Assembly (NCBI RefSeq): GCF_054482525.1
Contig: NZ_CM137006.1
Direction: 5' to 3' (one strand)
Length of the DNA: 64,000 nucleotides
In this document: positions 32,188-33,100 of the stretch, one piece after another
Numbering within the stretch: position 1 is the first letter of the stretch
Layout: the number at the start of each line of letters is the position of its first letter
Program-made: the position numbers and the translations under genes
The notes under the pieces: generated by a model
What the model saw: only the letters and a program-made list of their open reading frames with translations
Database searches by the model: none
What the model was told of the DNA's origin: nothing

Positions 32188-33100
32188 GAATCTTGACCTT
32201 TTTTGCTGTTATCGCCACTCCCTGCCGTGGAAGTCAGCTTAGAACAATGTACTCCCCCAGGACGGCGTTTTGAAGGTCTGCAGAATAAGATTTTGCCAGA
32301 GTGGAAGGCTTGATTGTGCTGTTAATAACTTAATAATGGCAAAATAATGAGGTGTATATGCTTAATAATTAATGTTATGTAGTGAATTGTTCTGATTCTT
32401 AATTGTGAGTGTGGTTTTTTTATCTGTAAGATAATTGTTTGAAAATGCCTCGTTTAAGAATTCACTAATGAATCGTGATGATGATATTTTCGCATTACGG
32501 AGAGTTTAACAGCGTGATGATTTCCGAGGTGTCGTAATGGGTGCAAGGTGTGAAACTATTGTTAAGCGGGATTAATGAATGAGGATGATGCTAATTAATT
32601 ATTATTTAATATTCAAAAAGGTTTTGTTGTGCTTATTAATAATAGAAGATTACTTTGCCTAACATAACATAACTTTGCATCAGATAATTCGCAATGACCC
32701 TTATAAATAAAAGGTTTTTGGGGTAAAATGCTCGCATAAATGACGGATCCCTGCTCTTGATGCCGCCTCACCATTGCTGTTTGTACGTGTTCGCGTATGA
32801 CCAGCGATGCTGCACGAGAGTGGAACAAGGACTCACATTTATACAAACACGCGCATGTCATAAATACAAAAGAGTGAGTAACTTAATAGATATGCGATTC
32901 CTGAAGATATATTCTGTGATCTACTTCAGGCATTATAACGGAACAATGTGAGTCGCTTTTTTAGTGCAACTCATATGCATTTTTACTTTCGTCCGGGTTC
33001 CGGATGAAACTGCCAGGGAGGCACATTACAAATGGAATTGCTTGTTTGTGTGTGCACAGCATTAACCAGCTCAGTATGAGCCGCCAGTAAGTGATAATAT

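Follow-up and report, generated by a model that had tools for sequence, protein, structure and literature searches.

The alaA-lrhA intergenic region described here covers 913 bp (positions 32188 to 33100) of a 64,000-nt stretch of contig NZ_CM137006.1 in RefSeq assembly GCF_054482525.1, hereafter called the window, and separates alaA on the minus strand (start at 32187) from lrhA on the plus strand (start at 33101). An earlier note, made from the DNA sequence alone, had named the two genes correctly, with the encoded AlaA being 100% and LrhA 99.4% identical to the K-12 proteins, and had singled out the gap as the longest in the window, which it indeed is, followed by lrhA-nuoA with 629 bp and yfbV-ackA with 337 bp. 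The gap has a GC content of 38.0% compared to 52.1% for the whole window, and its centre at 32330-32720, which the same note had called extremely AT-rich, has 29.9% and is the most AT-rich stretch of the 64 kb (equally AT-rich windows of 391 nt make up 0.016%); both AT runs quoted for it are present, TAATAATTAATGTT at 32363 and ATTAATTATTATTTAATATTC at 32594. The whole tract is 100% identical to that of E. coli PCN033 and 96.4% identical to that of K-12, where it corresponds to 2,406,642-2,407,560, and we found it in 5425 of 5426 complete E. coli genomes, always on the chromosome and with a median of one copy per genome (two places at most). A search for repeats in the tract returned short ones of low identity. 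The annotation of E. coli PCN033 has the same two genes with nothing between them, as have the GenBank records of K-12 MG1655 and K-12 RV308, so that "unannotated" is a fair description of the tract as far as GenBank records go, whereas its features have already been described in papers.

For comparison, we retrieved 80 Enterobacteriaceae loci with LrhA orthologues, 78 of which gave an alaA-lrhA spacer with alaA divergently upstream of lrhA; the other two had no alaA match in the retrieved stretch, and one of these loci is short. The spacer measures 764 to 1140 bp, mostly 905 to 1013 bp, with a GC content of 35% to 44%. Judged by column identity, four blocks are conserved, at 32188-32297, 32548-32617, 32678-32727, and 33018-33100 (Table 1), and the background around them aligns poorly. 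The first comprises the alaA promoter and leader hairpin, which form the best-conserved block of the whole tract, and the third is the lrhA promoter, meaning that two outward-facing promoters share one spacer, that of lrhA with a mapped start and that of alaA predicted from conservation. The tract is very probably the shared control region of the divergent core genes alaA and lrhA. It is real and functional, and its main parts are already published though absent from genome annotation.

Table 1. Features of the alaA-lrhA intergenic region, in positions of the window.
Feature	Position	Strand	Basis and remarks
alaA 5' UTR, ca. 52 nt (predicted)	32188..32239	-	start near A32239/32240 predicted from the conserved -10
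alaA mRNA 5' hairpin ACUUCC-ACGGCA-GGGAGU	32217..32234	-	RNAalifold and single-sequence fold; near-invariant loop
alaA sigma-70 core promoter (putative)	32246..32274	-	-35 TTCAAA 32274-32269; 17-bp spacer; -10 TACATT 32251-32246
CAAAATCTT(A/C)TTCTG box	32281..32295	-	just 5' of the alaA -35; Lrp-site-like; conserved across genera
Fast-evolving AT-rich spacer	32298..32547	.	G>C on the plus strand; column identity 0.13-0.50 in 80 sequences
Conserved AT-rich block	32548..32617	.	includes ATTAA-N7-TTAAT; -188 to -119 of the lrhA start
lrhA promoter	32681..32735	+	upstream element CAGATAATTCGCAA 32681-32694; transcription start mapped from the published start
lrhA core elements	32701..32706 and 32724..32729	+	weak -35 TTATAA; 17-bp spacer; -10 TAAAAT; alignment
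lrhA 5' UTR, 365 nt	32736..33100	+	published K-12 UTR and +1 of the fusion
ArcZ pairing site (predicted)	33007..33023	+	CUGCCAGGGAGG with ArcZ UUUCCCUGGUG; windowed duplex scan, -17.7 kcal/mol
Conserved motif AAAUGGAAUUGCUU	33030..33043	+	among the best-conserved leader columns across genera; unassigned motif
RprA/McaS site (predicted)	33051..33061	+	complement (with G-U pairs) of UGCUGUGUGUA, common to RprA and McaS
Hairpin GCUCA-GUA-UGAGC	33069..33081	+	just 5' of the ribosome-binding region; in MFE and centroid folds
UhpU pairing site	33080..33089	+	M1 mutation at C33085; duplex scan with UhpU ACUGGUG

On the alaA side, the hexamers TTCAAA and TACATT each occur in 71 of 78 sequences. The distance between the two elements is exactly 17 bp in all 78, although the sequence of this spacer varies; conserved -35 and -10 elements at a fixed distance around a changing spacer are the signature of a sigma-70 promoter. 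Since the distance from this -10 element to the ATG is 52 to 59 nt in 78 species, the conserved promoter predicts a short alaA leader in E. coli that starts at the position given in Table 1. Other, more distal alaA promoters were proposed by our consensus scan and by Shimada et al. 2014, each of them different. The hairpin that would open the leader has 81% of cells paired, and one of its pairs (79-96) is AU in 50, GC in 14, and GU in 11 sequences, giving a covariation score of 0.182 compared to no more than 0.086 in slid controls. With low probability, this hairpin and its near-invariant ACGGCA loop may be a so far undescribed site at which a regulator of alanine transaminase binds. Within E. 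coli, a 75-nt query (32188-32262) that takes in the leader and a portion of its promoter is at least 99% identical in 5396 of 5425 genomes and present in single copy, and no second copy of the alaA leader motif was found in E. coli genomes. The CAAAATCTT(A/C)TTCTG box upstream of the promoter shows two mismatches to YAGHAWATTWTDCTR, which we take to be the Lrp consensus. Matches to this presumed consensus are several but weak, and across the window they are not enriched, with 84 found vs 69 expected.

The promoter of lrhA can be placed with the help of published work on K-12, where Melamed et al. 2023 reported an "unusually long 371 nt" 5' UTR. The lrhA part of their lacZ-fusion primer and their lrhA-M1 gBlock both begin with ATAAATGACGG, which precedes the ATG by 371 nt in K-12 and by 365 nt in our sequence, where one unit of an ACATTT repeat is absent, so that the lrhA start corresponds to A32736. 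This nucleotide falls 6 nt after TAAAAT, and a -10 element of the form TAnnnT is found in 80 of 80 sequences (TAAGAT in 50, TAGGAT in 11, and TAAAAT in 9), at 17 bp from the -35 element in 79 of 80 and with an exact CTTATAAATA in 49 of 80. The far-upstream start of the lrhA leader thus has a matching promoter, and the annotated short lrhA 5' UTR mentioned by Bilusic et al. 2014 is unsupported by their data. With the start at A32736, the AT-rich centre comes to lie at -16 to -400, making it promoter-upstream DNA rather than leader. The earlier suggestion of a long structured 5' leader therefore stands for 32736-33100 but not for the AT-rich centre, which is upstream of the mapped start.

Sequence turnover in the AT-rich centre is uneven. 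The part next to alaA (32298-32547) is 92% identical to K-12 and 63% to 68% identical to E. albertii and L003, a divergent E. coli-labelled lineage. Compared to this variable part, the block at 32548-32617 reaches column identities of 0.58 to 0.71, except for the bin 32578-32587 with 0.43, and from ca. 32589 on it is invariant in four Escherichia sequences. Throughout the sample, G exceeds C and T exceeds A on the lrhA-sense strand of the centre (80 of 80 sequences, mean GC skew of +0.21). Our sequence has 84 G vs 41 C in this region. Among the 400-nt stretches of the window, this one has both the lowest GC content and the strongest G skew, 0.43 compared to a mean of 0.053 (sd 0.08). Leading-strand bias is too small to explain this asymmetry. 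Helical phasing of AA/TT as in curved DNA is absent in E. coli (z = -0.3) and present in some genera only.

Published ChIP, SELEX, and EMSA work has placed Lrp, OmpR, CpxR, and RNA polymerase in the alaA-lrhA spacer. Lrp binds there and activates lrhA according to ChIP-seq and RNA-seq, CpxR binding to the lrhA promoter has been shown in EHEC, lrhA has a positive effect on its own transcription, and the RpoD holoenzyme gives SELEX peaks in the spacer (Shimada et al. 2014). The same authors named the 920-bp lrhA-alaA spacer, alongside csgD-csgB and nanC-fimB, as a long spacer with many transcription factor sites. The ca. 400 bp of AT-rich DNA at ca. 32298-32680, upstream of both promoters and outside any known transcript, would thus most likely be a landing platform for Lrp as an activator, OmpR, CpxR, RNA polymerase, and LrhA acting on its own gene; binding within the spacer is taken from these papers. 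No CpxR box of the form GTAAA-N5-GTAAA was found in the gap when up to two mismatches were allowed, and our consensus scan of the gap returned 3 promoter-like sites vs 3.5 expected. The idea that many inputs control lrhA from this region holds, while promoter-like sites are not in excess.

Transposon insertions in the spacer have been reported to cause hyper-motility in ST131 and to raise expression of lrhA in K-12 and of pigU in Serratia. Increased expression in E. coli and Serratia is what one would expect of a disrupted silencer, and the AT-rich centre might mainly be an H-NS/StpA silencing patch that keeps lrhA low, with the specific regulators mostly acting by counter-silencing. The exceptional AT-richness of the centre agrees with this reading, which can coexist with a landing platform, and the earlier note had likewise pointed to H-NS as a typical ligand of such DNA. 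However, Table 1 of Shimada et al. 2014 marks spacers with H-NS SELEX signals and leaves lrhA-alaA unmarked, and the tract belongs to the core genome and keeps its synteny throughout the family rather than being foreign, its presence in nearly every E. coli genome being the opposite of a patchy distribution. Phasing of AA/TT tracts is missing in E. coli, the overexpression could be explained by read-out from a transposon promoter, and insertions in the spacer of EC958 give an lrhA loss-of-function phenotype instead. We therefore regard silencing by H-NS/StpA as an unlikely main role of the AT-rich centre.

A landing platform for transcription factors nevertheless leaves two properties of the centre unexplained, namely its G>C asymmetry and its conserved length. 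That the length is held and G exceeds C in all sequences while the sequence itself turns over suggests a possible unrecognised function, and we tentatively consider, at low probability, that the DNA at ca. 32298-32680 is more than a passive landing pad. It might silence in cis or insulate the two promoters from each other, or it might give rise to a weak transcript, upstream or antisense, by which the basal level of lrhA is set. If true, such a transcript would explain why insertions raise lrhA and pigU. The specific proposal that the centre is itself transcribed, from a distal lrhA promoter or in divergent or antisense direction, would make the strand asymmetry a trace of this transcription and finds some encouragement in Shimada et al. 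2014, who could resolve two RpoD peaks in spacers above 500 bp and showed the lrhA-alaA pattern among their examples. Yet published transcript data give one lrhA start, at 32736, promoter-like sites are not in excess, and no upstream -10 element is conserved like those of the two core promoters, which together make transcription of the centre improbable.

The lrhA leader is 96% to 100% identical to K-12 (by segment) and is predicted to fold stably, with a minimum free energy of -113 kcal/mol and a z-score of -3.05 relative to shuffled versions. RNAs of ca. 150 and ca. 350 nt from the interval co-immunoprecipitate with Hfq, and Northern blots identified them as belonging to the mRNA of lrhA, whose level rises when hfq is mutated (Bilusic et al. 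2014). Published RIL-seq data further contain chimeras of the lrhA leader with UhpU, ArcZ, RprA, and McaS, and an lrhA-lacZ fusion is repressed by the first three of these small RNAs but not by McaS. The lrhA mRNA is also recovered in RprA pull-downs and decays faster under the action of RprA, and pairing of UhpU has been proven by the compensatory pair UhpU-M1/lrhA-M1. Comparison of the lrhA-M1 gBlock, GCCGCGAGT, with the wild type, GCCGCCAGT, pinpoints the proven UhpU contact to C33085, at -16 from the AUG.

Unrestricted duplex prediction gave meaningless whole-molecule pairings, and we used a windowed scan instead. It revealed complementarity to sRNA seed regions, with duplexes extending over 33007-33023 for ArcZ, 33039-33062 for McaS/RprA (-16.9 kcal/mol for McaS), and 33068-33089 for UhpU. 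Other duplex sites of similar energy exist, so that only the UhpU site is certain and those of ArcZ and RprA/McaS are predictions. For UhpU, the site with the best energy is 32759-32780, which we rejected because it varies in E. albertii, where the published site is invariant, and because the M1 mutation lies at 33085. A long-range terminator that could be formed by a 10-nt inverted repeat (32830-32839/32945-32954) followed by a U-run was discarded as well, given that changes in its 5' arm are uncompensated in L003 and E. albertii. No rut-like bias of C over G was found along the leader, and our literature search, prompted by GGA motifs in the leader, found no paper linking it to CsrA.

Among the species compared, the leader measures 334 to 587 nt with a median of 398 nt if the start is taken 7 nt after the -10 element, and it is long in every species, making a long lrhA leader a family trait. 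Sequence conservation is limited to the last ca. 95 nt, which hold the sRNA sites, the AAAUGGAAUUGCUU motif, a CACAGCA core (in the 33051-33061 region) that is conserved family-wide, and the hairpin before the ribosome-binding site, while the sequence of the distal 270 nt is not conserved. Identity over the last 94 nt is 100% for K-12, E. albertii, and L003. For the first 92 nt of the leader, it is only 56% to 64% within Escherichia. The ATG within the AAAUGGAAUUGCUU motif varies (AAGGG, AACGG) and is therefore no start codon. Other genera carry different hairpins in the place of GCUCA-GUA-UGAGC, such as GGUCA..UGACC, GCUC..GAGC, or CAGGU..ACCUG, and RNAalifold on the proximal leader across genera found no single consensus structure, the hairpins being lineage-specific. 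Folding of the leader across species is weak as well, with a mean z of -1.2, values below -2 in 9 of 40, and most not above shuffled versions. Citrobacter naturally has the same C-to-G change as the lrhA-M1 mutant, which breaks pairing with UhpU. This agrees with the literature, where regulation of lrhA by UhpU is viewed as having arisen in Escherichia.

The sRNA sites also coincide with an upstream ORF of 28 codons (33004-33090) that ends 10 nt before the lrhA ATG, spans all three sites, and is identical in four Escherichia sequences. Its stop near the lrhA start would be compatible with an ORF that couples or gates lrhA translation and is itself blocked by the small RNAs, but its identity is 100% at the nucleotide level without synonymous variation, only 4 of the 74 distinct sequences, all of them Escherichia, keep it intact (with its start codon and 25 codons or more), and in Citrobacter the start is replaced by GTG and codon 16 is a stop. 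By inspection, the ORF is also devoid of a Shine-Dalgarno sequence, its ATG directly following the CCGGGUUCCGG hairpin, so that we consider translational gating by this ORF very improbable. The other ORFs fare no better. As had been claimed, the gap holds only short overlapping ORFs, and none of them is conserved: we compared all ORFs of at least 25 codons within the gap and one shorter uORF candidate to K-12, L003, and E. albertii, in which, two excepted, they are disrupted by a frameshift, a stop, or the loss of the start, and when Citrobacter is added every candidate breaks in E. albertii, L003, or Citrobacter.

That the tract encodes a free-standing sRNA or small protein, both suggested by the earlier note, is very unlikely: the Hfq-bound RNAs from the interval were shown by their discoverers to be lrhA mRNA leader (Bilusic et al. 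2014), an Rfam scan of both strands of 31800-33500 at E<=1 had no match, a terminator scan found no site inside the gap and a single terminator-like one within alaA, and the best protein candidate, a hydrophobic 27-aa ORF at 32579-32662 (MRMMLINYYLIFKKVLLCLLIIEDYFA) that is open in K-12 and L003, lies upstream of the mapped lrhA start, loses its ATG in E. albertii, and in Citrobacter, where the corresponding stretch starts with ATGAATGG, runs into TAA after 7 codons (alignment read by eye), with all other ORFs showing frameshifts or stops in close relatives.

Shared control of alaA and lrhA from one intergenic region very probably works as follows. Toward alaA (32188-32295), a sigma-70 promoter preceded by an Lrp-like box would produce an mRNA with a short leader that opens with a hairpin, all of these elements being deduced from conservation. 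In the opposite direction, regulators bound to the AT-rich DNA would act on the lrhA promoter, which has a weak -35 and a -10 element at 17 bp distance (TTATAA and TAAAAT) and fires at A32736. The resulting 365-nt leader binds Hfq and serves as an sRNA hub in which UhpU, ArcZ, and RprA pair within the last ca. 95 nt, adjoining the ribosome-binding site. They lower both LrhA synthesis and the level of the mRNA, and repression of flhDC is thereby relieved. Support for these last steps comes from the papers cited above, by compensatory mutation in case of UhpU and by reporter or decay assays for ArcZ and RprA.

LrhA stands near the top of a network that controls motility, fimbriae, RpoS, and CRISPR-Cas, and the setting of its level is consequently relevant to virulence and to the attachment to surfaces. 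That the leader is long and bound by Hfq, that UhpU, ArcZ, and RprA act as repressors, and that Lrp, OmpR, and CpxR provide inputs has been published before, and finding it again changes nothing. Our small additions are that both core promoters with their 17-bp spacers and a leader length of ca. 400 nt, as predicted from the conserved -10 element, are kept across 78 Enterobacteriaceae species, along with the conservation of the alaA block and of the sRNA-pairing end of the leader and the strand asymmetry of the spacer centre. These comparative results mostly guide the choice of bases to mutate.

The closest known system is the K-12 lrhA 5' UTR itself (Melamed et al. 2023 eLife; Bilusic et al. 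2014 RNA Biol; Lalaouna et al. 2018 NAR), which is the same locus and with which start, leader, and UhpU site can be aligned nucleotide by nucleotide; our sequence differs from it by the one missing ACATTT unit and by scattered substitutions, mostly upstream of the promoter. Like the leaders of rpoS and flhDC, that of lrhA is long, Hfq-dependent, and targeted by several small RNAs including ArcZ and RprA on the mRNA of a single regulator. Unlike in rpoS, where ArcZ and RprA increase expression, all tested small RNAs with an effect on lrhA are repressors that pair near the ribosome-binding site. In rpoS, ArcZ and RprA act by opening an inhibitory hairpin. The leader of csgD is also targeted by small RNAs. 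At the DNA level, csgD-csgB and nanC-fimB are long divergent spacers (755 to 1458 bp) upstream of a master regulator with many transcription factor sites (Shimada et al. 2014), just as lrhA-alaA is, but compared to them lrhA-alaA has far fewer mapped sites, only one regulator gene (lrhA), and no H-NS mark. Finally, the orthologous regulators hexA, pecT, and pigU of Photorhabdus, Dickeya, and Serratia belong to hosts in other families of the Enterobacterales, outside the 78 aligned loci. ArcZ controls hexA and pecT, and Serratia also has an alaA-pigU spacer in which insertions raise pigU, whereas the UhpU site is specific to Escherichia.

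The highest conservation in the Enterobacteriaceae spacer comparison lies at the alaA end of the alaA-lrhA intergenic region, in a block on the minus strand that comprises the predicted alaA promoter and a short leader. Downstream of the TACATT element, this leader is predicted to form a hairpin at its 5' end, in which the ACGGCA loop is near-invariant and one base pair covaries. The block has no match in Rfam, and we found no published description of it.

Coordinates of features in the window
Feature	Position	Strand	Details
alaA promoter and short leader block	32188-32300	-	
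alaA promoter	within 32188-32300	-	TTCAAA, 17-bp spacer (78/78 sequences), TACATT
AT-rich spacer centre	32298-32700	+	84 G, 41 C
K-12 insertion site	32836-32841		one ACATTT here, ACATTTACATTT in K-12
Conserved lrhA leader motif	33030-33043		AAAUGGAAUUGCUU
lrhA-nuoA gap	34040-34668		629 bp
Low-GC stretch	~51880-52060		31% GC, G skew +0.36

The AT-rich centre of the spacer carries the strongest excess of G over C found anywhere in the window, and the sign of this skew is identical in all 80 Enterobacteriaceae spacers even though the sequence itself can barely be aligned. The second-longest intergenic region of the window, between lrhA and nuoA, is also AT-rich (minimum of 28% GC per 100 nt) with large swings in local GC skew, and another low-GC stretch with strong G skew corresponds in E. 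coli PCN033 to a frameshifted elaD pseudogene and a hypothetical gene of 44 aa. In one E. coli genome (SCPM-O-B-12142, locus L089), the spacer is reduced to its first 167 bp followed by IS1, with the junction at window position ~32354; this genome lacks lrhA along with the nuo operon and genes as far as elaD, in what looks like an IS1-mediated deletion.

Among the flanking proteins, LrhA diverges much faster than AlaA, with 74-95% versus 93-99% identity over the same species set (L003-L082, the retrieved Enterobacteriaceae loci, against window 30970-34039). The lrhA leader is 365 nt long here instead of 371 nt as in K-12 because of a 6-nt tandem-repeat indel. Its motif AAAUGGAAUUGCUU is among the most conserved leader positions across genera and includes a GGA that may sit in the loop of a short hairpin; none of the four known sRNAs (UhpU, ArcZ, RprA, and McaS) is predicted to pair there, and we found no publication linking CsrA to lrhA.

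At the UhpU pairing site, several Citrobacter species (L010-L013, L016, and L018) naturally carry GCGAGT in place of the E. coli GCCAGT. The C-to-G change, aligned to window position 33085, is the same substitution as in the engineered mutant lrhA-M1, which abolished repression by UhpU (Melamed et al. 2023).
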